Source: an uncultured virus (IMG/VR IMGVR_UViG_2061766007_000491)
Taxonomy: Duplodnaviria > Heunggongvirae > Uroviricota > Caudoviricetes
DNA length: 64,000 nucleotides
Direction: 5' to 3' (one strand)
IMG/VR virus record: IMGVR_UViG_2061766007_000491
Shown: piece after piece, positions 1 to 60,600 of the stretch
Layout of the letters: each line of letters starts with the position of its first letter
How positions within the stretch are numbered: position 1 is the stretch's first letter
Notes under the pieces: model-generated
What the model saw: only the letters and a program-made list of their open reading frames with translations
What the model was told of the DNA's origin: nothing
Databases searched by the model: none
Translations under genes and position numbers: made by a program

Positions 1-51
1 AGCATAGGATTTCCACGGCGGATGCCGTTGTGCCGAAGGCACTTATGGTAC

Positions 52-87
52 ATACTAATAGTGAGTATTTTTACTTACTATTAGTAT
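52..87. repeat. 16-bp AT-rich inverted repeat (one mismatch) upstream of the cassette array
   Basis: ATACTAATAGTGAGTA (52-67), TTTT loop, TACTTACTATTAGTAT (72-87); TATAAT overlaps the right arm at 85-90. Confidence 0.8.
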
Positions 88-168
88 AATTATTTTATAA
101 TAGATAGAGGCACAAGGGGTTATGGATGTCCAGCCCGAAGAGGCTAGACGAGTGGGAGTAGAAGGGTA

Positions 169-2891
169 AATGGTGTAGCCAGAGGTGGATTTTATAGTAC
201 AAGTCAAGTGTTAAATGTCAGGTGTGGAGGGTTAAGATGGGAGAGGGTAGGGACTTATGCGGGGGATAGAGTAGGGTTTCGTTTGAATGGTGTAATGAGG
301 TGTGGGTCATATAGGAGTGATGATATGCCTTACAGGGCGAGGATAGGGAGTAGGATACAATTAAGGTGGACGGCGGTATCTAGTATAGTAGGGTTTCGTT
401 TGAATGGTGTATATCGGGGAGGGGGCTGCTCAGACAATAGTAAGCGTAAGGTTAAGGTGTGCAGGGAATAGGTATGGTGATACATCGAGGCATCAGGGGA
501 CTGCGATCATAGGGTTTCGCTGTGAATGGTGTAATAAGGAGTGGAGCTTACACCTTAGTGAGTACAGGGTTAGCAAGGATGGGATATAGGAATCAGTATC
601 AGGTACATAGTAGTGCTAGGGAGTATATAGGGTTTCGCTGAATGGTGTAATAGTGGGAGTAAGTAGATATGGTAATGCGGATAGGGTGAGGTGTGGTTAT
701 AGGTTTAGTGGGTATAAGAGGTATAGTAATTATAGTGACTTAGGGTTTCGTTTGATCTGTGAATGGTGTATATCGGGGAGGCCAGCAAAATTCATCTAGT
801 GCGGATAAGCAGAGGATAGGTAGGAGAGGGAATCCGAACAGGAATAATACACAGGAATATGCAGGGTTTCGTCTGTGAATGGTGTATGGGCAGGTGGGCA
901 ATATGCAGGTAATTCACATAGTGCAAGGGGTAGTTCTAGGTCAGGTGGGTACAGGTTAGGATATGTGAATGATACTTTAGGGTTTCGTACTGTGTGAATG
1001 GTAATGTAGGGTTAAAAAGAGGGACTAGCTTTACACAGTTAAGTGTTTATGGAAGGTGTGGGTATAGAAGTAGTGGGAATATATTGTATGGTAACGGTGT
1101 GAATTTAGGGTTTCGTCTGTGAATGGTGTAATACGAGGTGGGGCTTATAGTCATGTAAGTCTAAGGAATAGCGTGTTTAGGAGGAATGGGAGTTACCCAC
1201 AGGAACATAGTTATACGAGTAGTGCAGTAGGGTTTCGCTGAATGGTGTTAGTAGGAGTGGGGCTTATAATAGTGCAACAGATAGGTATAGAGTGGCTAGA
1301 AGGAATGGGGGTAATAAAAAGAATAGTGTGTTTGGAGAAATAGGGTTTCGTACTGTGAATGGTGTTATTGTAGGTGGAGGGAATGCAGCTAATAGTTACA
1401 GGGGTAGAAGTAGTATAAGGTTAGATGCTAGAAGGAATGAGGTGAAGGATTATAGAGGGTTTCGTTTATCTGAATGGTGTATTTAGAGGTGGAGGGTTCA
1501 CGGCTAGTAAGGAATTGTATTTTAGGTGTGGAGGGGTTAGGTGGAATGAGCGGTACAGGACGTTTGTGAATAACGCATTAGGGTTTCGCTGGGGTGTGAA
1601 TGGTGTAAGGGTGGGAGGCGCATATTATAGTCAACCACCGATGTTTATAAGGAGTGGAGCGAGGAGTAATTATCCAGTATTGAGTTATGTAAGTACGACA
1701 TTAGGGTTTCGTTCTGAATGGTGTGTTACGGGGTGGGTATATTAGCACAGGTCAAGTGTTAAATGTTAGGAGTGGGAAGAGGGATATTAGGGTAAAGACG
1801 TTAGATGATGGTGCTAGAGGGTTTCGTTTACTGATTCTGTGAATGGTGTAGTGAGAGGTGGGAATTACAGTAGGGATTATAAGGTGTATATGAATAGGTG
1901 TGGGTTTAGATATAAGGATGCAACATTAAGAGGGCAAGGAGGGTTTCGTCTGTGTGAATGGTGTATTAAGGGGGAATACTTATGGGCCAGCATATAGATC
2001 AAGACCTGGTTGGAGGAGGAATGATTATTGGGTAAGGGTAGATAGTGCAATAGGGTTTCGTCTGAATGGTGTAGTAAGGTCTAGTGATATTATATATAGT
2101 TCAACAAAGACGGTTAGAATGAGGTGCGCTTACAGGACGTATTTGATAAATACATGGAGTAGTACGGCGGTAAATGTAGGGTTTCGTTTGGGGTGTGAAT
2201 GGTGTTAGTAGAGGTGGAAGGGCTGGACATTTAGCGTGGTTTATAAGGAGTAGTAGGAGGTGGGATAGTTATGGTTATGTTATAGGGAATGGGAATGTAG
2301 GGTTTCGCCTGAATGGTGTACGCAGGGGTGGTGTATATAACGATTATGCACGGTATTGTAAGAGTGTGTATAGGAATAGCTATGCAAAGGCTAATGGGCA
2401 TAGAGAGATAGGGTTTCGTTTTGAATGGTGTATTTAGAGGTGGGAATTGGTATCAGAGACCTTCATATACGAGGATAGTGCTTAGGAGCGGGAGTGAAAA
2501 AAGGAGTTATGTGCTTCTTAGTATAGGGTTTCGCTGTGAATGGTGTAATGCGTAGTGGGCAGTTTAGTTGGGCATATACGAGTTACATTAGAAGTGGGTT
2601 TAGAAGGGGTGGAAGGGTAGCTAATAGTGCAAGTGGGAGTGACATAGGGTTTCGTTCTGAATGGTGCTATAAGAGGTAGTGGTTTGATATACTTAACTCA
2701 TTATAAGCCGAGGAGTGCGTTTAGAATGTACTTGAATAACAATTATGTGCAATCAGGGTGGAGTGATTTAGGGTTTCGTTCTGAATGGTGTAGTTAAGGG
2801 AGGTGCTGCGGATGCGTTATCGGATAGGCAGAGGGCAGCTAGGGTAAGGGATGTAGGATTAAGATATACGGGTGCGCATACAGGGTTTCGT
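169..2891 (+). repeat. Tandem array of 23 variable cassettes (period 111-128 bp), each encoding an FGE/CLec-fold variable-region-like peptide
   Basis: AGGGTTTCG at 273,390,511,629,742,863,979,1107,1229,1342,1456,1580,1703,1818,1940,2052,2178,2299,2410,2525,2646,2770,2882. All but the last are followed after 2-14 nt by GAATGGT. Interiors are all different but translate as NGVxRGG...RxxxR...GFR. Confidence 0.95.
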
Positions 2892-2920
2892 TTGACAGAC
2901 CTGTATGTTATGTGTAAAAT
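2892..2920 (+). promoter_or_regulatory. sigma70-type promoter directly after the last cassette
   Basis: TTGACA (2892-2897), 17 nt, TAAAAT (2915-2920); same boxes as the promoters at 9363 and 13908. Confidence 0.7.
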
Positions 2921-2930
2921 GTTATGTGCT

Positions 2931-3551
2931 ATGAGGTACGAGCATTTTGTGGTGAGTGCAGACCAAGCGAGGTTGACGGAGGACACGGAAAGGCTGAACA
3001 AGTTTTTATCGGGGCATACGATCAATAACGTGCGCAGTGTATTCAGTGAGGCGTTAAAGGGCTGGTATTATGCGGTGGAGTACAGCGACAAGGAAGGGGT
3101 TTATATCCCAGACAAGGCAACGGAGCAGAAGGGTGTACGCACGACCTATGTAAACAGTTCTGAGTCAATCAAGGAGAAGATGGCTAAGAAGAGGCGTGAC
3201 TTCTTGAAGGAAATGACGGATGAAGAGTTTGCGAAAATGTGGATATTAAGAGAGTGCCGTAAGTTCATAGCGACCGAGGAAGGTAAGCGACCCATGTATA
3301 TTTTTCTGGACAAGCATTTTTCGGAAATGATAAAGCAGAATAACTTTACACTGGAATTTATGCGGACGCTGGAAGGTATAGGCGACAGGGCTACTAAGTA
3401 TGGGCAACGGTTACTAAAGTATTACGAAGTAAAGGTACAACAGGACTTGTCTGATTACATAGTACGGACGCAGGCACTAAGGGAGTCTGAGGCGAGCGAT
3501 GAGATAGACAGGGACGGTACAGAGGAAATGGAAGAACAGGAGTTGATTTAG
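2931..3551 (+). CDS. hypothetical protein
   Basis: ORF track 2892..3551; start moved to ATG 2931 because the TTG at 2892 lies in the -35 box. Confidence 0.7.
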   Translation: MRYEHFVVSADQARLTEDTERLNKFLSGHTINNVRSVFSEALKGWYYAVEYSDKEGVYIPDKATEQKGVRTTYVNSSESIKEKMAKKRRDFLKEMTDEEFAKMWILRECRKFIATEEGKRPMYIFLDKHFSEMIKQNNFTLEFMRTLEGIGDRATKYGQRLLKYYEVKVQQDLSDYIVRTQALRESEASDEIDRDGTEEMEEQELI

Positions 3552-3554
3552 AGT

Positions 3555-4973
3555 ATGTTAAGCAGTAAAGAAGCAAAGAGAATCATGCCGAAAGCAGAGC
3601 GTAAGTCAAGGAAGTGGTGTAACAGACACAGGTTTTATGAGTTGTTAGCATCCCAGGCAGAGCAGTACATAAGGAAGTACGATGGCAGGGACGCAGAGAG
3701 CATTGAGTTGAACATCTTTCTGAGGCATAGCTATGGTGTGTTCAAGGAGCTAGAGGAAAAGTCTTATGAAAAGATGAACAAGTGGCATGAACTCTACATT
3801 GAAGAGGAACAGGAGAGGAAAGAGAAGCTGGAACAGGAACAGCGGAAGGAAGAGGGGTCTGAACAGTTAGGTACTGTATTAAAGGGTGTATTGGCTAAGA
3901 AGTATAAGAAGCTGTTACAGTGGGCAAGAGAAGGGTTATGTGGCTGTAGTGATGAAGAGGAACGGCTGGCTTGGGGAAAAGTAATAGTGAGTTTGAAGAA
4001 CACTATAGCGAATGGCTGGGTTGCTCCGTACCTGTTTATAGAAGAGGACAGCAGAGCGCAACAGTTGTATGGAGGATTATTGAGCAGGTTTAATGATGAA
4101 TGCGCTGAGGAAGTGGATGAAGAGGGAGTAGAGTTGACCGATGAAGAGAAAAGGGAGTTTGCAAATAACTATAGAACACCAGAAGAGATATTAGGGTCTG
4201 ATTGGGTAGAGATACTGCATAAGTATATGTATAAGCTGGTGGAGTATGCTAAGGAACGTATAGATCGTGAACAAGAGGCTAAGACACATAATGAAAAGTT
4301 GCAGATAGCTCTTAGCAATGTGCATGAGGCGTTAAAGATGTCGCTAAACGGTTATACCTTGCCTAATTTTGGCTACTTCACAGAGGAATATAAGGTGTAT
4401 AGTATTCTGGTATATGACTTGGCTTGTAGTTTGTTGGATGATAAGCTACGGTCTTTGGTGGATGAGAAGTTACGGTGTACCTATGAAATGGTGCTGAATC
4501 ACCTAGAGGGTATGGTGATGGACACTGAGGAAGAGAAAGAGGCGTTAAAGAGGGTGATACAGGCTGTTAAGAATGGGTTAAAAGAGGGTATAAGACCCGT
4601 ATTCCCCGAAAAAACGGAACTGAATATCTTTATGTCAGCATGGAACTACATAGACCAGCTACAGAAGGCTGCACGGACTAAACCGCTTATAGCAATGCCT
4701 TGGTATGAAGGGTTAAGCGATGAAGAGATCAGGGGTAGGAATGCAACGTGCTTAAAGAGGCATATCGCTTTTATGCTGGATATTTGCGCAGAAGAGGATA
4801 AAGAGGCATGGCAAAGCCTGATGGACAAGTGCGATAAAGATTTGAACGTGGATGATCTGACACCGAGAGAGTTTAAGGTGTATAGTTGGATATGGTTTGA
4901 GGAAAACGAAGAGCGTAAGAAGCAGTTACAGAAGGAACCACAGTATAAGGTGGAAATGATCGAGGAGGAGTAG
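3555..4973 (+). CDS. hypothetical Glu/Lys-rich helical protein
   Basis: 472 aa ORF tightly packed between neighbours. Confidence 0.8.
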   Translation: MLSSKEAKRIMPKAERKSRKWCNRHRFYELLASQAEQYIRKYDGRDAESIELNIFLRHSYGVFKELEEKSYEKMNKWHELYIEEEQERKEKLEQEQRKEEGSEQLGTVLKGVLAKKYKKLLQWAREGLCGCSDEEERLAWGKVIVSLKNTIANGWVAPYLFIEEDSRAQQLYGGLLSRFNDECAEEVDEEGVELTDEEKREFANNYRTPEEILGSDWVEILHKYMYKLVEYAKERIDREQEAKTHNEKLQIALSNVHEALKMSLNGYTLPNFGYFTEEYKVYSILVYDLACSLLDDKLRSLVDEKLRCTYEMVLNHLEGMVMDTEEEKEALKRVIQAVKNGLKEGIRPVFPEKTELNIFMSAWNYIDQLQKAARTKPLIAMPWYEGLSDEEIRGRNATCLKRHIAFMLDICAEEDKEAWQSLMDKCDKDLNVDDLTPREFKVYSWIWFEENEERKKQLQKEPQYKVEMIEEE

Positions 4974-4974
4974 G

Positions 4975-5730
4975 ATGTTCGAGAAGGTAAGCTGGATAAT
5001 CCCGACAATGTGGAAGCACACGTTGTTTTTTCGGTTGCTGGATAAAGTGAGCAAGGCAGACAATGGGGATGAAGTGATCGTGATAGATAATGTGAATAGC
5101 AATAAGCACATTAAGTTACCGAACGTGAGACAGGTGTTTATCAGTACGAACAGCTTTGTCAATCCAGCTTGGAACCTAGGCGTGAGTCTGAGCCATAACG
5201 AGGCGATATGCTTAGTAAACGATGACGTGATGTTTACTTATGAGGTGTATAGGAAACAGTTATTAGATGCCTTGAATGAGGACGAGCATAGCTTGTTACT
5301 GAGTTATAAGAGGCGGTTTTACAATATACAGGATAAGACAGATGAAGAGTTACTGAGGGCTTATCCTGTGTTGGTTGACCCTGTGGATTCTGCACCTGGA
5401 TGGAAGCTGGTCACGCCAGAGGTGGATGCCGAGCCTGATGAACCGTTCTGGGGTACAGGTTTTGTGCAGGGCATGGCATATAAGCATTATCCAGCTATAC
5501 CAGCGCAGTTGAGGATATTTTTTGGGGATAATTGGATTAGGGAAGTGTATAAGGCGAATGGATGGAGACGATTGTTAAGTCACTGCAAGATAGTGGGTAG
5601 GCTGAACGGCACGGTGGGTACGTTTAATTGGGATAGCATTGGTAGGGATAAAGGTCGGGTCTGGGAGGGTGAAGTGGATTATTATTACGGTGTGTGTGCG
5701 CCAAAATTTGAAACGAAGCGTCTATATTAA
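4975..5730 (+). CDS. glycosyltransferase family 2 (GT-A fold)
   Basis: IIPT start, VIVIDN, VNPAWNLG, LVNDDV (DxD-type) and FFGDNW motifs. Confidence 0.8.
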   Translation: MFEKVSWIIPTMWKHTLFFRLLDKVSKADNGDEVIVIDNVNSNKHIKLPNVRQVFISTNSFVNPAWNLGVSLSHNEAICLVNDDVMFTYEVYRKQLLDALNEDEHSLLLSYKRRFYNIQDKTDEELLRAYPVLVDPVDSAPGWKLVTPEVDAEPDEPFWGTGFVQGMAYKHYPAIPAQLRIFFGDNWIREVYKANGWRRLLSHCKIVGRLNGTVGTFNWDSIGRDKGRVWEGEVDYYYGVCAPKFETKRLY

Positions 5731-5745
5731 AGGCGAGGATAAAAT

Positions 5746-6390
5746 ATGTTCGACATTATTGACAGGAACGGAAAGAAAGAGTTGTTCAGGTGGTTTCAGG
5801 CGGTGAATAAGCCCATGAAGGTTGTGGTTATTCCCGATGAAGTGGAAGCTCTGTGCAACTATACTTTTAGCAATCACAGTGTGGGTCAGGTGGATTTGAT
5901 CTGGATGCCAGACACGATCACTGAGATTCCTATGTATTGCTTCTACAAATGCACGGCTAGGGCTATACGCATGAGCAGAAACGTGAAAACGATTGGTGAA
6001 TATGCGTTTGCGAATATGCCGAACTTATGGATGCTGAAAGTGCCAGAGGGTTGCAATCTGGGTATTAAGCGGTACGATGGTACTTGGATGAACCAGAACA
6101 CCGTATTTTACAACAGCCCGAAACACGCTCCAAAATGGAGTCCCTGGATTGACTTTGGTACAGAATACGACACGGCAACGGTGCTGTGGGAAGGTGATGA
6201 AGGGAATGTACTGTTAAAGAGTCTGGACTTAAAGAATTGGGAAGTAGTGGATGAAGGCAAGGGTGTGTATCAATACCCGCTGGATGGTGTGAAACGGTGC
6301 TTTAAGGTGGGTGCTAAGAATGTGAACCCGACCCAGAGAACCAAAGACCAGACCTATGTGTCACGGACTAAGACGATCGTGATTAAGTAA
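5746..6390 (+). CDS. BspA-type leucine-rich repeat protein
   Basis: IPDEVEAL..YTF, MPDTITEIPMYCF, NVKTIGEYAFANMPNL repeats. Confidence 0.7.
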   Translation: MFDIIDRNGKKELFRWFQAVNKPMKVVVIPDEVEALCNYTFSNHSVGQVDLIWMPDTITEIPMYCFYKCTARAIRMSRNVKTIGEYAFANMPNLWMLKVPEGCNLGIKRYDGTWMNQNTVFYNSPKHAPKWSPWIDFGTEYDTATVLWEGDEGNVLLKSLDLKNWEVVDEGKGVYQYPLDGVKRCFKVGAKNVNPTQRTKDQTYVSRTKTIVIK

Positions 6391-6451
6391 ACGATTTTTC
6401 GGCGTGGGGTTAGGGTTATTTTTATTATTATCGTAAATTATTGCTATGGGA

Positions 6452-6480
6452 GGGGCGGTCTGAGTGGACTGCCCTTTTTT
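6452..6480 (+). terminator. rho-independent terminator
   Basis: GGGCGGTC-TGAGTG-GACTGCCC followed by a T run. Confidence 0.7.
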
Positions 6481-6488
6481 GTGTAGAT

Positions 6489-6893
6489 ATGGCTGACGAA
6501 AAAGAATTTAGAGACGATGACGAGATTTCCGCAGAGGAGTATGCGGATGAGCCTGTGGACGACATGGAAGAGCCTGGTGATGACGAAGAATCAGAGCCAG
6601 AGGAGGATGATATTACGGATGATGAGGATGGGATTGAGGATAAGGAAATGGTAGAGATCAGTTCTGAGAGCGATACGGGTGATGTATCGTTCAAGTTCCA
6701 TATCGGCGATAAGGAGAGTGCGCCACAGGACAGGGCAGGTGCGGTGAGTGTGCTGGATAGTGTGGATGGATTTACAGCGGATGATGAGCCTATTGATGTG
6801 GATGCGTTACTGGATGAAGCGGAGGACACAGGAAGCGTAGAGTTCTGGGTGAGTCCAGAGGATAGGGAAAAGATAGAGGGCTGGATGATATGA
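6489..6893 (+). CDS. highly acidic hypothetical protein
   Basis: ORF track 6441..6893; likely start ATG 6489 downstream of the terminator; Asp/Glu-rich. Confidence 0.7.
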   Translation: MADEKEFRDDDEISAEEYADEPVDDMEEPGDDEESEPEEDDITDDEDGIEDKEMVEISSESDTGDVSFKFHIGDKESAPQDRAGAVSVLDSVDGFTADDEPIDVDALLDEAEDTGSVEFWVSPEDREKIEGWMI

Positions 6894-7189: not shown

Positions 7190-7772
7190 CGTTATACAGC
7201 GATTAGAGAGTCTGCTTGAGTATATAGACTATAGTGCTATTGTTCGGTCGAGCAAGAAAAAGGACTATAGTTTGCTTAGACATAAGAAGGATAAGAGCTA
7301 TTCAAGACTGACTCTTGATGTATTTACGGATGCGGAGAAGTATGAAATGGTTAGCAGGTGCTATACAGATGTGTATAGAAATGGGTTTGCGGTGGTTTAT
7401 CAGGATGGGGAGCCATTCTTGAAGTTTGCGAATGACCGATATTTACTGTGCTATAGCTTAACGAAACAGGCAGGTGGGCGCATGGTGAAGGTGAGTGTGA
7501 AGCCTGGTTTTAAGTTTGGGGATGTAATTAGTTTGGACAGAGCGGTGGAAATACTGAGGGATGGATTCTTAGCGTTTTTAGAGGATGCGCTGATCGTGAA
7601 GGTGGGCTACAATGGGCCTGTGGAGGGTGACAGGATGACGTGGCAGTACATTCAGGACAAGGGTAGTGACAAGTTGAAGGGGTATTATGTGGAGTTTGCA
7701 AAGATGTCTTGGTCGAAGCTGTATGAGAAAGCACAGAGGATAGGCGAAGAGCCAAAGCCGATTGAGTATTGA
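7179..7772 (+). CDS. hypothetical protein, candidate internal head protein
   Basis: 197 aa ORF; N-terminal IQRLESLLE leader. Confidence 0.65.
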   Translation: MASDVIQRLESLLEYIDYSAIVRSSKKKDYSLLRHKKDKSYSRLTLDVFTDAEKYEMVSRCYTDVYRNGFAVVYQDGEPFLKFANDRYLLCYSLTKQAGGRMVKVSVKPGFKFGDVISLDRAVEILRDGFLAFLEDALIVKVGYNGPVEGDRMTWQYIQDKGSDKLKGYYVEFAKMSWSKLYEKAQRIGEEPKPIEY

Positions 7773-8130
7773 TTTTATGGAGAGTGATGGTTTTTTACGT
7801 TTAGAGAATGTGGGAACAGTGAGGGGGTATGAGGGGAACAGAGAAGTAAAGGGTGTGATGGTGATAAACGCCAAGCGGATAGGGGACGGAGCGTTTAGGA
7901 ACTGCGGTAAGGTGAAAGAGGTGATATTACAGGATGTGGCAGAGATAGGCGCAGAGTCGTTTTTAGGTTGTGGGAAGCTGCGGAAGGTGGTAGTAGTAGG
8001 GTCGTGTTATAAAATGGGCGAGAAAGCCTTTTCTGGCTGTGGAAAGCTGGATGTAGTGGTTCTGCCCAAGACGATGAAGAGCTATCCAGTAAATGCGATA
8101 CCAAAGAATGCTAAGGTTTTAGTAGAATGA
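7762..8130 (+). CDS. BspA-type leucine-rich repeat protein
   Basis: IGDGAFRNCGKV, IGAESFLGCGKL, MGEKAFSGCGKL repeats. Confidence 0.85.
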   Translation: MSIDFMESDGFLRLENVGTVRGYEGNREVKGVMVINAKRIGDGAFRNCGKVKEVILQDVAEIGAESFLGCGKLRKVVVVGSCYKMGEKAFSGCGKLDVVVLPKTMKSYPVNAIPKNAKVLVE

Positions 8131-8459
8131 AACAAGCGATCAGAGATTTATACACGTTGCTAGAGAGCTTTGAGCCGATTGTGTTAGGCGATTGGGATGA
8201 CCTGAGACAGTGCTTGAGGAGCTTTGGCGAGGACAATTACAATGCGAAGGTGGGGAATTGGGAGATTTATGGGGACAGGGCTGGTACATGGGATTTAGAG
8301 TATAAGAAGATGCCGATACTGGACTGTAATTTGTATTTAGTGAAGGAAGTGCCTAACCTGAATGATTGTGAGGGGATGAAGGAACTGGTACAGATCATGC
8401 GTAAGGAATTGCCGTACTTCCATTATATGCCTTTAGAGAAGAAACTAGGATTGAGATAG
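8127..8459 (+). CDS. hypothetical protein, paralogue of the N-terminal part of 8462..9331
   Basis: ESFEPIVLGDWDDLRQCLRSF vs ESEEPIPFRDFGKLSRCLRLF. Confidence 0.7.
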   Translation: MKQAIRDLYTLLESFEPIVLGDWDDLRQCLRSFGEDNYNAKVGNWEIYGDRAGTWDLEYKKMPILDCNLYLVKEVPNLNDCEGMKELVQIMRKELPYFHYMPLEKKLGLR

Positions 8460-8461
8460 AT

Positions 8462-9331
8462 ATGAATGAGCAATTAGAGAGACTTTCAAAGATGGTGGAG
8501 AGTGAGGAGCCTATACCGTTCAGGGATTTTGGTAAATTGAGCCGTTGTTTAAGACTTTTTGATAAAAGTGGAAAAGATGCTAGGGTTGCACCTTGGTCTA
8601 TTGGTAGAGGTGGGTATGACATGGATTGGCAGATCAATTATGAGGATGAAATAGGGAGGTTGGGAACTCCTGTAGTAGAGAGTGTAGCAGGTAGAGTGGA
8701 GATCATTGTTCCGATGTATAGGTACATTGGATGGGAGAAGTTATTAAAGGTTTTGAAAAAATCGTTTCCATATAATAAGTTTGGAGCGATGGAGAGGGAT
8801 GTTTATCCTGGTGATGAAGATGAACCTGTGGGCGAGGCTAAGATGGTGGAAGAGGATGAGGATTACGCTTCTATGGTAGGTGCAGATCAGTTGGCTAAAC
8901 AGTTTGGCCTGAGTGATGGACAGACCAAGCTATTGACTAAGATGTTTAATAAGGTAGCGGGGGCAGCGTTAAAGGGTGGAGTAGGTGGTTTACGGAACAG
9001 ACTGATGGGCAGGGGTGGAGACGATGAGGAAGTGATAGATGTAACACCGAAACAGGTAGATGTGAATACGGATGTGTTGCATGGTGCGCTGGCTATGGAT
9101 GCGCCTGTGGATATGAATACACCGTGTGTAGCGAAGCTGGCAAGGATGGACGGCAGTGCGTATTATGTTTTTAATTGGGACGGTGACGATACGATTAAAG
9201 CGTATTATGTGGATGGCGAGGGTAACAATGGCATGATAACAACCTCGTACAAAGACGCTTTAGTGGATGGGTACGAGCCTATTTCGTATAAGGAAACACT
9301 AGGCGAGATCAAGGACAACGAAGATTTTTAG
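8462..9331 (+). CDS. hypothetical protein, candidate internal head protein
   Basis: 289 aa ORF; N-terminal LERLSKMVE leader. Confidence 0.75.
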   Translation: MNEQLERLSKMVESEEPIPFRDFGKLSRCLRLFDKSGKDARVAPWSIGRGGYDMDWQINYEDEIGRLGTPVVESVAGRVEIIVPMYRYIGWEKLLKVLKKSFPYNKFGAMERDVYPGDEDEPVGEAKMVEEDEDYASMVGADQLAKQFGLSDGQTKLLTKMFNKVAGAALKGGVGGLRNRLMGRGGDDEEVIDVTPKQVDVNTDVLHGALAMDAPVDMNTPCVAKLARMDGSAYYVFNWDGDDTIKAYYVDGEGNNGMITTSYKDALVDGYEPISYKETLGEIKDNEDF

Positions 9332-9420
9332 AAAAAATATGAAAAAATTTTTCACAAAAATGTTGACATGATACAAAGTCTATAATAAAATTCTTTCGTG
9401 CTTCGGGAAAACGGAGCATG
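9331..9420 (+). promoter_or_regulatory. sigma70-type early promoter with A-rich UP element and downstream hairpin (copy 1)
   Basis: TTGACA 9363-9368, 17 nt, TAAAAT 9386-9391; similar sequence repeated at 13876-13960. Confidence 0.8.
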
Positions 9421-9442
9421 ATAGTTCAAAAGTAGATGATGT

Positions 9443-9468
9443 GGGCTATCCGAGTGGGTAGCCCTTTT
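9443..9468 (+). terminator. terminator-like hairpin
   Basis: GGGCTATCC-GAGT-GGGTAGCCC-TTTT. Confidence 0.6.
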
Positions 9469-9515
9469 ACTTTTGAGAGTTAAGTTTAATTAGTTATAGA
9501 AAGGCAATACAGATT

Positions 9516-9875
9516 ATGGCATATTACAAAGTTAGCACATTACTTCAACGCTGGAAGAGCGCATTGAAAAAAGCTAAGACACCTCGTATTTATGAGACTG
9601 AGGAAGTGGAAGCGGATGACAAGAAAGTCACGGTCAAGTTTTTCTGGCCTGCTGGTCGCTGGACATGGTATGTGACCGAGTGGGATGGCGAGGACGAGTG
9701 CTTCGGTTATGTCAAGAGCGGTTTTGGTGCGGACTGTGACGAGTGGGGTTATTTTAGGCTTTCTGAGTTAGCGACACTGAATCAGGGGTTGCATGATTGG
9801 AGAAGGTGCTTGCAGGTGGAAAGAGACCTGTATTTTAGACCACGAACCTTCAAAGAGGTACAGGTGACTGATTAA
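9516..9875 (+). CDS. DUF2958-like protein
   Basis: KFF.P.G.WTWYVTE.D....FGYV....EWGYF.LSEL...VERDLYF.P pattern. Confidence 0.75.
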   Translation: MAYYKVSTLLQRWKSALKKAKTPRIYETEEVEADDKKVTVKFFWPAGRWTWYVTEWDGEDECFGYVKSGFGADCDEWGYFRLSELATLNQGLHDWRRCLQVERDLYFRPRTFKEVQVTD

Positions 9876-9933
9876 GACTGAGTGTTAAGGGGAGGGGTGA
9901 TAAGCCTCTCCCTTATAGAAAGGGCAATACGAT

Positions 9934-10638
9934 ATGACAGTAAGAGAATACAGTTTTAGAAGGTGGGTACAAGGCTATAGAACGGCTGAGGGAAGGCGTT
10001 ATTGCGGGTACGATATACCGCAAATAAGTGAAGAGACCTTATATGAGCAGTACCAGAGACTTGTGCAGTATGAGAACAAGGGTCTGGAAGTGGACTTCTC
10101 TGAGGTGGTTAAGGCTGCAAGACACCATGTTATTCTGGTGGGTGATAATGTTCCTTTAAGGTGGTTGCCGAATGAATACTATAACTTAGTGGAAGAGGCT
10201 GTCAGTGCAATACAATGCAGTGAACCGAAGGTGTGGATAAACAGCTTTTGCAGAGTGGATAAGTACAGTGTAAGAGTATTCTGGGAGCCGTTACAGTTCC
10301 GTTACAAGAATGTGGATTATGTAGTGGAATGCAAGCAGGTGTGTAACCGTTATGAGATTACGAAGGGCAGACGGTTAGGCGGTTTTCCGAACAAGGAGAA
10401 GTTCTTACAGTTACAGCATGACTTTGATCGCTTTATAATCAGACGAGCAGGTTGGTGTCTGAATGAGTGGGAGAGACTTTTAGGGCCAGAGGAATGGGAG
10501 TTTCACCAAGACCTCGTGAATGAGTGTCAGCCTAAGCTGTGGAATGAGTATTGGGGGAAGTGGGTTGCTAAGGTAAAAGCCTTCCATTTTAGCGTGAAAG
10601 AAGTGGAAGAGCTAGGTATTGAATTACGAAAGGAATAG
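9934..10638 (+). CDS. hypothetical protein
   Basis: 234 aa ORF preceded by AGAAAGGG. Confidence 0.75.
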   Translation: MTVREYSFRRWVQGYRTAEGRRYCGYDIPQISEETLYEQYQRLVQYENKGLEVDFSEVVKAARHHVILVGDNVPLRWLPNEYYNLVEEAVSAIQCSEPKVWINSFCRVDKYSVRVFWEPLQFRYKNVDYVVECKQVCNRYEITKGRRLGGFPNKEKFLQLQHDFDRFIIRRAGWCLNEWERLLGPEEWEFHQDLVNECQPKLWNEYWGKWVAKVKAFHFSVKEVEELGIELRKE

Positions 10639-10646
10639 TCTATATT

Positions 10647-10997
10647 ATGCAGGACAGGTCTAAGTGGTTTGAGCGGTATCTTAGGGGTGAATATCCCTGG
10701 TGGGACGAGAACCCACACAAGGCGGAGGTGATTGAGGGGTTTAAGCGTTTCCTGAGTGAGACGCACACCCCGAAAGACGCAGGGGATAACCCTACAGTGG
10801 TGATATGGTATAGTGGGGCTAAGTACCATGTATATGCTTGGGACGGTGAGGATACTATTACAGTGAAGTGTGTGACACCGAGACAGGAACGGTGGGATAC
10901 GATTGGAATATCAAAGTGGTTGCAGTGGTTGGATTTTGTGCCAAAATTTATATACAGTGCGTATGGAGTTGAAAACATTAAGCATGGTATTAAGTGA
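10647..10997 (+). CDS. hypothetical protein
   Basis: 116 aa ORF. Confidence 0.65.
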   Translation: MQDRSKWFERYLRGEYPWWDENPHKAEVIEGFKRFLSETHTPKDAGDNPTVVIWYSGAKYHVYAWDGEDTITVKCVTPRQERWDTIGISKWLQWLDFVPKFIYSAYGVENIKHGIK

Positions 10998-11760
10998 AGC
11001 GGATGCTTTGGATTTTGAGGATACAGGGAGGAGAAAGTTCTTCCGTAAGAATGTGAATCCTGAGTATCCTCCGTTTGTAATGCCTGTGAAGGACGCAAAG
11101 CCACGCCCAGCGGATGATTATGTCCATGATGATGACATTGATCCTGATGAGGGGAGGGTGTATGAGTACACGTTTAAGGATGGTGTATTTTATGCCACAC
11201 CGAGTAACAGGATGATGGCAAGTCAGTTCCCATTGTTCTACAGTGTGGATTATCTGAAAACGTGGAAGGTGGCTAAGAATGACCTTAGCAGGGGTGAGAA
11301 CGATGATACCATGCCGAGGAGTGGGCAGAATATCCCTTATGTACTGCAAGCGATTAGAAGGGATTTTGAAAGGGCTATAGCGGAATCGTTAAGTGCTGCC
11401 CGTTCAAAGGTGTATTATGACGATGACGGCGACTTAGTGATTAAGCCTGTGGATAGGTCTAAGCCGACATTTTACATGAAGAGAGAGCCTGATAATAGGT
11501 TTTATATCATGGCAGATGGCGAGCATAAGAGTGAGGATGACTTCTGGTTTTCCAGAGAGTTTAACAAGAACGGTCAACCTAATGCAGATTGGCATAATGT
11601 ATTCATGGTGCTGGTGATGAAGGTAGGTAATGAGTATCTGGACACAGTAGATGTGCCTGGTGAGTTCTATAAACGTAACGGTGAGATGATACAGAAAAAG
11701 AAGTCTGTATTGCGTACTAAAGCCGAATTTGATAAGAATAAGATTAGAGGATTGGATTAG
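10984..11760 (+). CDS. hypothetical protein
   Basis: ORF track 10903..11760; ATG 10984 minimises the overlap with the upstream gene. Confidence 0.7.
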   Translation: MVLSEADALDFEDTGRRKFFRKNVNPEYPPFVMPVKDAKPRPADDYVHDDDIDPDEGRVYEYTFKDGVFYATPSNRMMASQFPLFYSVDYLKTWKVAKNDLSRGENDDTMPRSGQNIPYVLQAIRRDFERAIAESLSAARSKVYYDDDGDLVIKPVDRSKPTFYMKREPDNRFYIMADGEHKSEDDFWFSREFNKNGQPNADWHNVFMVLVMKVGNEYLDTVDVPGEFYKRNGEMIQKKKSVLRTKAEFDKNKIRGLD

Positions 11761-31259: not shown

Positions 31260-32222
31260 ATGGGTGGGAACTATAAAAAGTTTGGCATAGACGGTACTGA
31301 GCGTTTGTTAAGAGTAGGTGCAAAGGTAGCATCTACTCTGATTAGCGTATTAGACGACCCTTTGGGGTATGATGCTGATATATTTTTCCCAGAAGGAACC
31401 ACCGTGTACGATGGGAGTGATAACAGTGTGAGATACCCTGTATTGCCTACTATAAGCCGTAGGGTGATTATAGGCAACATAATGACAGAGCGAATGCACG
31501 GTGACGTGACTCTGGACGTGTATAACGAGCAACAGCCGACCTTATGGATTGAAAGAGAGTATAGAATACCTCGCTATAGTAAAGTGGTGGTGAAGGTTAA
31601 GAATGAGACCATACTACAGTTTAAGGTGCAGTATGAGTCGGGTATGTACGCAGTGGATAATGAAATGTTCCATAAATATCCGCTAGTGCCTATGAGTGCA
31701 GTAGCGACAGGTGCGCCTGAGATAGACGAGAACCCGATGGATGTGACCTTTGACGTGAACAGTACGGGCGAGCTAGTGGTTAAAGCGAGGGGTGCTGAAC
31801 CGCTGGAATATCAATGGTACAAGGATGACGAGAAAATCGAGGGGGCTACAAGTAGTAGCCTACTGATTGACCCTGTAACGATGGACACGGCTGGCGATTA
31901 TCGCTGTGTGGTGTCGAATAGTGTGGGTACGAATACGACTTATCCCGCTCATGTGAGTGTGGCGAATCTCCCGATAATTGTGACACAGCCAGTAGGAGGG
32001 CGTTACCCAGAGGGTAGTAAGGTTACTCTGAGTGTAGAGGTACAGGGCGACCCACCGCTGAGGTATCAATGGTATCATAATGAGGAAAAGCTGTACGGAA
32101 AAAGCAACAGCACTTTGGTTATACCGAATGCGCACCAATGGGATAACGGTGATTATAAGGTACGCATAACGAATTTAACAGGCATGGTCGAGAGTGACAC
32201 AGTGCATTTATACATAGAATAA
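31260..32222 (+). CDS. virion protein with two C-terminal Ig-like domains
   Basis: PLEYQWYKD...AGDYRCVVSN and PLRYQWYHN...NGDYKVRITN. Confidence 0.85.
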   Translation: MGGNYKKFGIDGTERLLRVGAKVASTLISVLDDPLGYDADIFFPEGTTVYDGSDNSVRYPVLPTISRRVIIGNIMTERMHGDVTLDVYNEQQPTLWIEREYRIPRYSKVVVKVKNETILQFKVQYESGMYAVDNEMFHKYPLVPMSAVATGAPEIDENPMDVTFDVNSTGELVVKARGAEPLEYQWYKDDEKIEGATSSSLLIDPVTMDTAGDYRCVVSNSVGTNTTYPAHVSVANLPIIVTQPVGGRYPEGSKVTLSVEVQGDPPLRYQWYHNEEKLYGKSNSTLVIPNAHQWDNGDYKVRITNLTGMVESDTVHLYIE

Positions 32223-57695: not shown

Positions 57696-60600
57696 ATGGG
57701 TAGAACAGTTTATACAGATGTTCTGGTACGAGGGTATCAGAATGTGGGATATGAAGAGTTACAGGATAACGCCCGTCTGGATGTGGCGGGCGGTGATTCT
57801 GGTATAGCACCGTTTAAGATTGGTGTAGGTGGGTTGACAACGGTTCCGAGACCAGGGGCGATTGAGAATGTGGGTGACGATATACTCTGGACGGATAGCT
57901 ATGGGGTGAGACATTCACTCTTGAAAGCGGATTCCCTTGTAGAAAACTCGTTAAGCCTATTGATGTATGGAAAAGCCTCTCTGATGCGTAAGGAGGGGTT
58001 TTTAGGTGCAAGTGCTGGTTGGTATAGGATAGCGTCAACAAAAGCCTCTATAGGGGCAAATGAAGCGATTTTCAGGGTATATGAGAAGAGCTATGACTGT
58101 ATCTTTACCATAAAGGCGTGTTTAAGTAATAACAAGACACCGACATTGACAGTGGATGCCTTGAGTGGCTTGAATGAAGCGGGTATCACTAAAGTCAGGT
58201 TGGTTTATACGACAGGAACGGTGGATGGGTACTATGCGTATTTGGAGGTTTATAAAGCTGGAACATCCTCGTTATATGCAGTGGTGGAGAGTGTAGAACC
58301 ACACGGATGGGACATAGTACCTCCTGTTATTCCTGGTGGAGTGCCTAGTGGGTTCACTACTAAGGAAGTGGAGTTAGTGGAAGGAGCGGATTTTAATGGT
58401 ACGGCAGCGAAGGTGGTTAGTACGGCTGTAAACAGTGGGACGTACTACATAACAGGTGTTCAAGAACCGAGTGGGGTACATAGTTTTGACTATGACGTGT
58501 ATTTTAATGCCAGTGATGGGAGTTTACATAGTAATGCGATCAATAGCGGAAGCGGTACTTTTACTGGTTCTCTGGGTGTAGCTAGTACAGTTACATTGAG
58601 TGTATTGGGTGCTGGTGTGGTTCATAGCAGTGCCAGTGGTGTATTAAGTTCGTCTAAGGTGGCTTTAGGTTCTGAGGTATCAGGTACGTTACCAGTAGCG
58701 AATGGTGGAACAGGAGCTACGACACTGACAGCGAACAGGTTATTAGTGGGGAATGGTACTAGCGCAATAGGAGTGGTTGGAACAGGAACAGCTAACTATG
58801 TTCTTATAGGTAATGGGAATGCAGTGCCTACATGGGTTGAATATGCACCAAAAGCGACTTATGCAACTAGCGCAGGTTCAGCGACTACAGCGACTAATGT
58901 GAGTGGTGGAACGGTATCCTGTACGACATTGACGGCAAGCGGTTCTGTTACATTAAGTACGTTAGGTGCTGGCGTGGTTCATAGCAGTTCTAGTGGGGTA
59001 TTAAGCTCTGGAAAGGTGGCGTTAGATAGTGAGGTGAGCGGTATTTTACCTGTTACGAATGGTGGAACAGGAAGGAGCAGTATAACGGCGGGTGCTTTGG
59101 TGTATGGCAATGGAACGGGTGTGGCGAGTATTTTGGGCATAGGCACGAATAACTATGTGCTGGTGAGTAATGGGAGCGCACCGACTTGGGTTGAAAAAGC
59201 ACCGAACGCTACGAATGCAGAGAAGGTGGGTATCACTTCCAGTACGGCAAAGTTACACGTTCTTGGGGTAGCTACGAATGTAAGCGGAAATAGTACGATT
59301 TATAAAGACCAGAGTGTTACTATTGAAGGAGGAACGATCACAGCAACTACGTTTAGTGGTTCTTTGAGTGGTGGGACTATTTCGGGTACAAACTTGACGG
59401 CTACAGGCACGGTAACGCTAGGGACAAGTTCGGGGGTGGCGCATTTAACCTCTGGCGTGTTAAGTACAGGAAACGTGGCTTTAGGTTCTGAGGTGTCAGG
59501 TGTGTTACCAGTGGCGAATGGAGGCACAGGGATAAGTTCGTATAGTAAAGGGAATATCCTGTACGCAACAGCGAACACGACATTAGCAGCGTTACCTATA
59601 GGCACAGCGGATTATGTGTTGAAAGTGTCCAGTGATGGAATACCTGCATGGGCTGAGTTTGCGCCGAAAGCGACCTATGCGACTAGTGCAGGGTCAGCAA
59701 CCACAGCTACTAATGCGGATAATTTGAGTGTAAGCGCAAGCACCTCAAAGCTGTATGTAGTGGGAACAACGGCTACTACTAATGGTTATGTGACTATTGC
59801 GAGGGATGCCAGTGTGTATGTTCAGGGTGGAACAGTGGGTGCAACTACATTTAGTGGTTCTTTGAGTGGTGGGACTATTTCGGGTACGACTTTAACAGCT
59901 TCTAGTACAGTTACTTTCAGTGGGCTTGGTACTGTGGCTGGGGTTGTTCATAATAATGCAAGCGGTGTTTTAAGTAGTAGCTTGGTAAGTTTAACTGCTG
60001 ATGTTACAGGTACATTGCCAGTAGCAAATGGTGGAACAGGTATCAATTCTTATACCTCTGGGGATATGCTCTATGCAACAGGAGCTACTACACTGGCAAA
60101 GCTGGCAAAGGGTTCTAGTGGTCAAGTCTTAAAGTGCGATGGTTCTAAACCAGTATGGGCTACTATTTCGGATATTATAACTTCTGCTAATCCAACAGCT
60201 TCTATTGGATTGACAACAGTGAATGGCAGTGCAAGCACTTATATGAGGAGTGACGCTGCGCCAGCTATAGATGTGAGTATTACACCAAGTTGGACAGGTA
60301 AGCATACTTTTAGTGCTGGGTTAGTTGTTCAGAATACAAGTGGTGATGCTGCGAAGGGATTGAATATCAGGAGAACTACGGGTGATGGTGAGGCAGTACA
60401 GCATTATTTGGATGATAGTAATTATCATATTAAATATACGAACGATGAAACTACGAACGCTATAAAGTTCACACTGATAAATACAGATACAGAAGGGACT
60501 AATACAGGGACTAATGCGAATACAAGCACAGTTACTTTTGCAGGTAGCGCAAGTGGTTCTAATGTAACAGCAACTAAGTTTACAGGGAGTTTGGTGGGTG

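Follow-up and report, generated by a model that had tools for sequence, protein, structure and literature searches.

An array of silent variable-region cassettes behind the gene for a lectin-fold protein of an uncultured T4-like phage: a probable case of cassette replacement apparently derived from a diversity-generating retroelement

Two routes by which phages retarget themselves are known, mutagenic retrohoming by diversity-generating retroelements (DGRs) and invertase-driven flipping of gene segments. Borrelia, Neisseria, trypanosomes and chicken B cells rely instead on a stored silent repertoire; antigenic variation at Borrelia vlsE/vls, Neisseria pilE/pilS and Treponema pallidum tprK proceeds by gene conversion. 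We describe here an array of 23 silent cassettes, joined by linkers of 3-15 nucleotides (nt), at positions 169..2890 (+ strand) of a 64,000-nt stretch of DNA from an uncultured rumen virus of the Caudoviricetes (IMG/VR record IMGVR_UViG_2061766007_000491), hereafter the window. A first-pass annotation, made from the sequence alone, had proposed that the array is a library of binding tips that enter an expressed C-type-lectin (CLec) gene through short shared anchors, and matches between expressed and silent segments in relatives support that proposal. We consider it probable that cassettes replace the expressed variable region (VR) of a FGE-sulfatase/CLec-fold protein by recombination at the anchors, independently of a reverse transcriptase (RT), in a system that appears to derive from a DGR.

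The array was delimited by anchor counts and by parsing units from AATGGT to AGGGTTTCG. The latter sequence occurs 23 times in the window, always on the + strand and always within 273-2890, against 0.33 copies expected from shuffles; GAATGGTG occurs 29 times, 21 of these inside the array, against 3.66 expected. Positions 169-2890 resolve into 23 head-to-tail units of the form AATGGTGT...AGGGTTTCG, each 104-122 nt long. The number of units agrees with the first-pass annotation, whose unit size of 111-128 bp holds as the repeat period and not as the anchor-to-anchor length; the four peptides quoted there are units 4, 20, 19 and 21. In all units except one (22/23) the frame reading NGV..GF(R) is open and the length equals 2 mod 3, and the lengths of open units vary in steps of 3. 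Unit 3 (403-519, 117 nt) is out of step and contains two stops. The remaining five frames are open in merely 0-4 of the 23 units. Mean pairwise nucleotide identity of the interiors is 0.44 (maximum 0.58); shuffled partners give 0.40 (maximum 0.50). At the DNA level the units are thus essentially unrelated to one another, as their description as almost completely different had implied.

The encoded peptides nevertheless share a framework while their DNA is scrambled. In 234 open units, taken from the window and from related contigs, it reads N-G-V-x-R(88%)-G(86%)-G(74%)-x-Y/F ... R(91%)-S/C-G/A-x-x-R(93%) ... I/V/L-G-F, the residues R/G/G..R(S/C)(G/A)xR..(I/V/L)GF being retained in 74-100% of units, and the loops between them are enriched in R, G, S and Y. 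The codons of the 3' anchor, GGG-TTT-CG, are invariant in the window; in a wider codon tally, for which units were defined by their anchors, interior Arg is 84% AGR and interior Gly 31% GGG. This difference in codon use indicates that the anchors are conserved as DNA, beyond what the protein needs. In 39 homologous cassette pairs, 81 synonymous and 142 non-synonymous codon differences were counted, with 44% of changes at third positions, no more than a weak sign of purifying selection, the pairs being non-independent. The units had been described as having no start codon or ribosome-binding site of their own; the second part stands apart from one Shine-Dalgarno (SD)-like motif in the 23 units, and the first does not, since 14 of the 23 have an in-frame GTG or TTG directly upstream. 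A role for G-quadruplexes was dropped with a single motif in the array, and Rfam gave no match in window 1-3000. A CRISPR-like array was rejected, the "repeat" being split by variable linkers and the "spacers" keeping an open reading frame (ORF); CRISPR-like polar growth is likewise unsupported, as trailer ends differ among contigs with a common downstream flank. All predicted genes of the window lie on the + strand, with a GC skew of 0.15-0.64 in nearly every 1 kb bin and a C-poor coding strand, and the array is its most skewed part (0.54-0.64).

Relatives were sought in metagenome contigs with a strict two-gap anchor pattern, which returned 23 loci, 17 of them real arrays with the same anchors. 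The contigs L059, L060, L069, L071, L075 and L077 were set aside as chance matches: L069 and L077 were inspected and are bacterial housekeeping genes, and the other four were judged by the same 2+1 anchor pattern. An anchor-pair scan of IMG/VR gave 56 loci, all single chance matches, and a scan of genome_contigs gave one chance match; GenBank phages contain no DNA match to window 1-3600. Among the real arrays, the 9.2 kb contig L078 consists of nearly nothing but cassettes, and L074 has about 38 slots. The runs containing L078 are labelled bovine gut metagenomes.

The expressed gene was found in these relatives. It is a 409-410 amino acid (aa) FGE-sulfatase/CLec-fold ORF (L079 4263-5495, L078 3197-4429(-), L067 1250-2479), and a Pfam scan of the L079 and L067 genes placed it in PF03781 above the gathering threshold (E 3e-28 and 5e-30, respectively; profile positions 2/3-254 of 255). 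It ends in ...SWGV-NGV[VR]GFR-LALSPA-stop, and its VR is bounded, as every cassette is, by the anchors AATGGTGT and AGGGTTTCG. Sequence matching window 2-176 begins about 28 nt after its stop codon, window base 1 corresponding to the 28th nt past that codon, so the window opens just behind the expression site. A full-length FGE gene with the same anchors, for which the first-pass annotation had suggested a search, is thus present in L079, L078 and L067 directly upstream of this match. In the window itself, tblastn with a related full-length protein matches the cassettes only. The order in relatives is target gene, terminator-like hairpins, array. From overlapping contigs the full locus was reconstructed as an array of 9 slots, a LamG gene, CLec2, an array of about 37 slots, CLec1, an array of 23 to at least 29 slots, and an HRDC-like gene; a 54.6 kb contig carries both target paralogs. 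The Treponema protein TvpA (PDB 2y3c) is the second-best solved relative of the target by sequence (E 6e-9), and the cassette region aligns to its C-terminal VR. An AlphaFold model of the target was left unused (mean pLDDT 58.5; VR region <50). Between the 9-slot array and the type-2 CLec gene lies a 492-aa Laminin_G_3/ConA-like lectin gene (L079 2792-4270 and the 3' end of L066), the end of which overlaps the CLec gene start; the two proteins may form one adhesin module. The CLec protein presumably serves as a receptor tip that binds the host receptor.

The expressed VRs of relatives match silent cassettes. The L078 and L067 genes are 95-100% identical except in the VR, where they differ completely, including in length. 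A protein search with cluster look-up yielded 24 full-length copies of the two paralogs, with 22 distinct VRs. Five groups of these copies have 100% identical bodies of 365/367 aa, and four of the five hold 2-4 different VRs each. Eight of the 22 distinct VRs match a cassette at 0.92-1.00 aa identity, the silent-slot context having been verified for each. Two matches are exact in DNA: the L067 VR is silent slot 1 of L064 (107/107 nt) and the L079 VR is a silent slot of L078rc (116/116 nt). The expectation of the first-pass annotation that expressed 3' ends would match different cassettes in different molecules is therefore borne out, at 92-100% aa identity for 8/22 VRs. The L067 and L079 VRs contain 31 and 29 interior adenines and are exact copies throughout, so adenine mutagenesis is not involved. 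One cassette was found in VRs of both paralogs (P0123 and P0136).

Comparison of contigs shows that the breakpoints coincide with the anchors. Six pairs, either of a VR with a cassette or of two cassettes (96-100% identical), are similar from (GTG)TGAATGGTGT to AGGGTTTCG(TCT), and their flanking linkers differ; linkers do not move along with a cassette. One cassette may occupy different slots or arrays in different contigs, and the downstream flank of L068 is 97.5% identical to the window, yet only 2 of 22 slots are in common. In array 1, L066 and L079 have identical flanks, near-identical linkers and 5/9 slots at 97-100%; in the other 4/9 slots the cassettes are unrelated and differ in length, the replacement extending exactly from anchor to anchor, and one cassette is in slot 3 of one contig and slot 5 of the other. 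This pattern indicates that silent slots are rewritten singly, exactly between anchors. Clustering at 88% gave 182 cassette types among 255 units. The arrays of L070 and L074 are identical across two samples. Within contigs, 0 of 2,732 fully parsed pairs have an interior identity of at least 0.8, a result that would fit conservative swapping; near-identical pairs between contigs are many. The partial VR of L064 equals its own first slot (85/85 nt), the donor being retained there, and in L078 the same cassette is in the VRs of both genes (104/104 nt). Six other VR-bearing contigs have no same-contig silent copy among their incomplete arrays. For L078, Logan contigs were compared for every run: contigs in two runs end at the 5' anchor of the VR, and contigs of three DNA runs skip whole cassette blocks relative to L078 (+ coordinates 604->1816, 5992->8497, 6961->7081), so array length varies between or within samples.

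Several cassettes of the window have counterparts in these relatives; all 23 lie on the + strand and all are open except cassette 3. Cassettes 1 (169..281; 93.8% identical to L068rc_45-164), 2 (286..398), 4 (525..637) and 13 (1599..1711; 96.5% to L074_1929-2041) are 113 nt long. Those of 110 nt are 5 (641..750), 6 (762..871), 7 (878..987; aa identity of 0.75 with the VR of P0132, an expressed copy), 10 (1241..1350), 14 (1717..1826), 18 (2198..2307; 100%, 110/110, to L079_2280-2389, with linkers differing on both sides) and 20 (2424..2533; 99% to L078rc_8956-9065). A length of 107 nt is found for 11 (1358..1464; 97% to a slot in L068rc), 15 (1842..1948; 91% to slots in L079 and L064), 19 (2312..2418; 97% to a slot in L068rc) and 23 (2784..2890), and of 116 nt for 9 (1122..1237), 12 (1473..1588; 96% to a slot in L068rc) and 21 (2539..2654; 97% to L058_1451-1566). 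Cassettes 8 (997..1115; 96.6% to L078rc_4358-4476) and 22 (2660..2778; with the 5' anchor variant AATGGTGC) measure 119 nt, 16 (1957..2060) measures 104 nt and 17 (2065..2186; 88% to a slot in L058) 122 nt. Cassette 3 (403..519, 117 nt) is out of frame with two stops and is defective.

The array is followed at 2892..3551 (+ strand) by an HRDC-like gene encoding 219 aa from a TTG (Pfam HRDC, 24.5 bits against a cut-off of 23.8), the true start of which may be an internal ATG. An HRDC homologue follows the array in all four contigs that reach that end. The nearest proteins in the Atlas are small stand-alone HRDC proteins (0.87-0.89, taken as a lead only); a word-indexed search gave just six close relatives, and IMG/VR probed with the 2892-3551 protein returned nothing. 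In the relatives P0146-P0150, gene callers extended the ORF into in-frame cassettes, giving 256-383 aa as compared with about 219. The HRDC-like protein is a candidate accessory factor of the cassette system.

Both ends of the locus lead to the DGRs. The best IMG/VR relative of the target is the target of L080 (E 2e-43; 387 positions aligned, 33% of them identical). The HRDC-like protein, for its part, is 29% identical to the L080 HRDC protein (BLASTP E 1e-21). L080 is a bona fide HRDC-type phage DGR, with target at 3866-5044, HRDC at 5165-5638, an overlapping RT at 5577-6608 and a template repeat (TR) at 6611-6745; this TR is 87% identical to its VR, has AAC-rich codons and served as a control TR/VR pair. 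A hairpin GTCGC-GAA-GCGAC lies downstream of the L080 target and has a form like that of GTGCC-GAA-GGCAC in the window leader. According to two reports, HRDC accessory genes occur in 14 of 372 DGRs, and in Treponema the gene stands between TR and RT (PMC5758913, PMC4891356). Our locus has the features of a CLec/FGE target with a C-terminal VR and of an HRDC accessory gene beside the donor: the array holds the donor position of the DGR layout, and the HRDC homologue comes next. The ORF beside the latter (3555-4973), apparently absent in L058, has no Pfam, PHROGs family or usable Atlas match and is not an RT. From these sequence comparisons we read the locus as a putative DGR derivative that would have kept target and accessory protein, with a cassette library in place of the TR and no RT nearby. 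A mutagenic DGR was rejected, as the cassettes are mutually unrelated, the 29 and 31 adenines of the exact VR-cassette pairs are all unchanged, and the 64 kb window yielded no RT.

The flanks of the array bear on its transcription. Positions 1..51 (+ strand) are the end of the intergenic region after the off-window target gene, as located by blastn to L067/L079/L078/L064 and by alignment, and contain GC-rich stem-loops (CGGCGGATGCCG; GTGCC-GAA-GGCAC) within an otherwise C-poor strand. At 40-90 nt past the VR this locus and L080 both have GC hairpins, among them one whose loop is GAA, and these could equally be terminators. At 52..97 (+) there follows a terminator-like AT-rich hairpin of 16-17 bp and then a T-rich run; it is conserved in six leaders (fold z -3.2), with one compensatory pair in the window's copy, and is the sole + strand terminator-like site in 1-3600. 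It probably ends target-gene transcription ahead of the array. The pre-array spacer (98..168, +), conserved in 6/8 aligned leaders, weakly resembles the gene segment just 5' of the VR (tblastn of P0127 residues 344-404 against window 97-285, E 2e-4) and may be a duplication remnant. A consensus scan of the leader found no promoter-like site before the array; right after it, at 2892..2920 (+), is TTGACA-17-TAAAAT, which matches the promoter consensus at 11/12 positions, the total count of such sites in the scan not exceeding that of shuffles. These consensus matches suggest that the array is transcriptionally insulated.

Periodic arrays of this kind may not be limited to one group of phages. 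Among 75 IMG/VR loci with distant FGE genes, two (L106 and L115), on unrelated phage contigs, show periodic cassette arrays with other anchors. In L106 (a 33.7 kb record), at 10560-11600, 6-7 high-GC units of 124-153 nt follow the FGE gene; they begin with GACTGCCTGGGAAAG, a copy of gene sequence upstream of the VR, and end in GGGTTCCGCGT. Their CLec frame is offset from the upstream gene frame in gene and cassettes alike, which implies a frameshift or a sequencing error. L115, an 87.8 kb record with direct terminal repeats that is 100% complete, contains a tandem series of about 16 units at 7740-10585; they are 131-151 nt long and encode ..RGGSW..CRSAxR..GFR(I/V)V, most with an in-frame ATG and some with an SD-like GGAGG. 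Here the units precede an FGE body that is without the C-terminal segment (profile 4-208 of 255), the last unit being fused to the N-terminus of the body, and L115 may represent the same idea in permuted or split form. The complete record has no RVT_1 or HRDC match.

We propose that the array is a store of promoterless alternative C-terminal VRs for a putatively virion-associated FGE-sulfatase/CLec-fold protein encoded immediately left of the window. A cassette would replace the expressed VR through DNA recombination, with crossovers inside two anchors common to the gene and every cassette: a 5' anchor (TG..)AATGGTGT of 10-19 nt and a 3' anchor AGGGTTTCG(YYT) of 9-12 nt. Each exchange would alter about 30 residues of the ligand-binding face and leave the remaining protein untouched, and the same anchor-bounded exchange would rewrite individual silent slots. 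The ancestor would be an HRDC-type DGR in which a cassette library took the place of the TR and both reverse transcription and adenine mutagenesis were abandoned. Gene conversion or double crossover might be carried out by homologous or annealing machinery of phage or host, possibly aided by the HRDC-like protein. We infer the absence of an RT genome-wide, and in the same way the recombination enzymes and host-receptor binding; the exchange may proceed by copying or by reciprocal swapping. A wider form of this proposal, in which an RT-less DGR has turned into a stored repertoire of about 70 selected tips per genome, serving two paralogous lectin genes by a possibly conservative exchange with HRDC acting in a DNA step, and in which L106 and L115 make this a general class, is advanced tentatively, as something short of probable.

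RT-independent recombination is favoured by the exact copies, the lack of asymmetry between donor and recipient and the lack of a conserved priming element per cassette, as well as by the apparent insulation of the array, the lack of an RT in 64 kb and the complete 87.8 kb analogue without an RT. Among the three routes named at first pass, it is thus the gene-conversion-like one that we prefer, and multiple templates for a mutagenic RT are disfavoured by the exact copies and by the failure to find an RT in the window. An RT might still take part without mutating anything: the array would be transcribed and an RT encoded elsewhere would copy a cassette without adenine mutagenesis, by DGR homing helped by HRDC and hairpin. 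Such faithful retrohoming would account for the homology of target and HRDC-like gene to those of a real DGR (L080), for an HRDC gene that is a DGR accessory, placed between TR and RT in Treponema (PMC5758913, PMC4891356), and for the GAA-loop GC hairpin past the VR here and in L080; RNA-run contigs fall on parts of the array, and the genome is incomplete. We regard it as unlikely, however, because no RT is present in the 64 kb window, not even at the place next to HRDC that it occupies in L080 and Treponema, because 29-31 adenines were copied without a change, and because silent slots are overwritten, whereas a TR is protected. Linkers of a variable 3-15 nt with no conserved priming element per cassette, the terminator-like hairpin before the array with no promoter-like site in the leader, and the analogous array in a complete genome without an RT point the same way. 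Reciprocal swapping of VR and slot by a dedicated recombinase that recognises two different anchors is distinctly unlikely. It would explain why near-identical cassettes abound between contigs and none of 2,732 within-contig pairs reaches 0.8, it would produce the slot 3 to slot 5 move by two swaps via the VR, and it would give a reason for anchor nucleotides being conserved beyond protein need; yet the window shows no member of a recombinase family, neither anchor is a palindrome, and the L064 VR that equals its own slot 1 (85/85 nt) and the two like genes of L078 (104/104 nt) are copies and not swaps.

The locus might also have no programmed mechanism at all and consist of decaying tandem duplications of the gene's 3' end, with VR differences arising by rare recombination between co-infecting strains. 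All our evidence is comparative, the pre-array spacer resembles a remnant of the gene segment 5' of the VR, one cassette is broken, and the L070/L074 arrays, identical across two samples, make stable arrays possible. Decay is hard to reconcile with 22/23 open units whose lengths change in steps of 3, with framework residues kept while the DNA is scrambled, with up to four different VRs on identical gene bodies, or with breakpoints exactly at 9-19 nt anchors and 182 types among 255 units, and we hold this explanation to be very unlikely. Least credible, to the point of being highly improbable, is that cassettes are translated separately as peptides of about 40 aa that complement or compete with the lectin domain: in-frame GTG/TTG codons stand just upstream of 14/23 units, and units of the unrelated L115 array carry SD-like sequences and ATG, but in the window an SD-like motif precedes 1/23 units only, and the expressed gene encodes an entire domain, VR included, VRs being identical to cassettes.

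Several points weigh against replacement by recombination at the anchors. Anchors of this length are short for efficient RecA/UvsX-type recombination. The evidence for switching comes from assembled contigs of different samples compared with each other and not from single molecules, and none of the window's own 23 cassettes reaches 0.9 among the 22 expressed VRs sampled (best 0.75). In 4/24 proteins and in L057 the gene body is joined directly to array context, and in L065 array context is joined to the gene tail; these contigs may be single-crossover products or assembly chimeras. Retrohoming systems characteristically have parts like the HRDC homologue and the GAA-loop hairpin past the VR that are retained here. 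The window covers part of the genome only, a 48 kb relative having an estimated completeness of 28%, so that an RT or a dedicated recombinase could lie elsewhere. RNA library contigs match gene and array parts of L078, making transcription of the array possible; together with the cassette skips and the anchor-ending contigs they prove neither within-population switching nor transcription. Finally, support from FGE-sulfatase profiles for the peptides, the lack of which the first-pass annotation had listed among the outcomes that would refute its proposal, was found for 0/22 single cassette peptides, one of which gave a weak, sub-cutoff match to an unrelated family. At 35-41 aa lone peptides are too short for an FGE match; inside the whole protein the same segment can be aligned both with the last part of the FGE profile and with the C-terminus of TvpA that its DGR diversifies.

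The rest of the window belongs to a T4-like myovirus, with gp23-like capsid, sheath, tube, baseplate, terminase, clamp loader, primase and sigma factor genes; the major capsid protein is just 41% identical to those of Rhizobium T4-like phages. Its IMG/VR capsid relatives (77-79% identity) are fragments without an FGE gene. Searches of 62 ORFs (Pfam) and 54 ORFs (PHROGs) across the 64 kb found no RT (RVT_1 or other), FGE domain or recombinase, so that, with the tblastn result above, the first-pass statement that target gene, RT and recombinase are lacking from the window is upheld; nor does the window contain tRNAs. The ORF at 57696-63998 (>2,101 aa), which runs off the window end and had been named as a fibre gene worth checking, has no Pfam or PHROG match and no FGE domain in its visible part. 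Two small BspA-type leucine-rich repeat proteins (LRR_5, E 5e-13 and 5e-12) are encoded a few kb past the array, at 5746-6390 and 7762-8130. Beside the capsid genes, the product of 31260-32222 (320 aa) contains immunoglobulin domains in tandem (Ig_3, I-set) and may be a decoration protein like Hoc.

If our proposal is true, phages would have a third retargeting route, a large silent library of vetted tips exchanged into an expressed lectin-fold gene, and the L106 and L115 arrays with their other anchors would point to an unrecognised general class of viral specificity switching. The locus would be a natural experiment in DGR evolution after RT loss, in which a DNA-level role of the poorly understood HRDC accessory could be seen. 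For metagenomics it matters that assemblies break at such loci and that gene callers fuse cassettes into false ORFs; DGR finders miss them, as there is no RT and no TR/VR pair. Exchange via two anchors of about 10 nt, if it works, would also offer a compact in-vivo cassette-swapping tool for lectin-fold binders.

Among known systems, HRDC-type DGRs (TvpA of Treponema denticola; L080) are alike in diversifying an FGE-sulfatase/CLec target in its C-terminal 35-40 or so residues only and in keeping donor information just downstream of the target, and target and HRDC are homologous to those of L080. They differ in having one template repeat, whereas the array offers 23 ready-made donors unrelated to each other (about 70 per genome), copies are exact, with no adenine-specific changes, donor slots are rewritten and the window yielded no RT. 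Shufflons and multiple inversion systems (R64 Rci, p15B Min, Mu Gin, P1 Cin) also store alternative adhesin or fibre C-termini beside the gene and bring them in by DNA rearrangement, but with inverted crossover sites, a dedicated invertase and 2-7 segments; here the orientation is direct, no invertase was found and the cassettes number in the tens. Switching by an invertase was rejected, all 23 anchor pairs being direct on the + strand and no recombinase having been found in the window. Chicken immunoglobulin genes resemble the locus in that an array of non-functional pseudo-V segments is copied into one functional gene for a binding repertoire, with loops rich in Tyr, Ser, Gly and Arg; conversion there is eukaryotic and initiated by AID, and we know of no comparable initiator for the phage cassette system. 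Closest in layout are vls, pilS and tprK, with one expression site, contiguous promoterless cassettes, short direct repeats in common with the expression site, and an expressed variable segment that equals a silent cassette. Those systems serve immune evasion in cellular pathogens; this one is viral and presumably serves ligand or host recognition, with two expression sites and three arrays. Conversion at vls and pilS is segmental, within homologous cassettes, whereas here whole cassettes without internal homology are exchanged between anchors of 9-19 nt. A full-text literature search, judged at the level of result overviews, returned no account of phages that keep silent cassette arrays for a lectin-fold or receptor-binding protein. 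The locus has in common with silent-cassette systems an expression site with promoterless partial copies, and an expressed segment that equals a silent cassette with breakpoints in common flanking repeats; as far as we have checked, the use of this arrangement by a virus, on a DGR lectin scaffold and apparently without an RT, is new.

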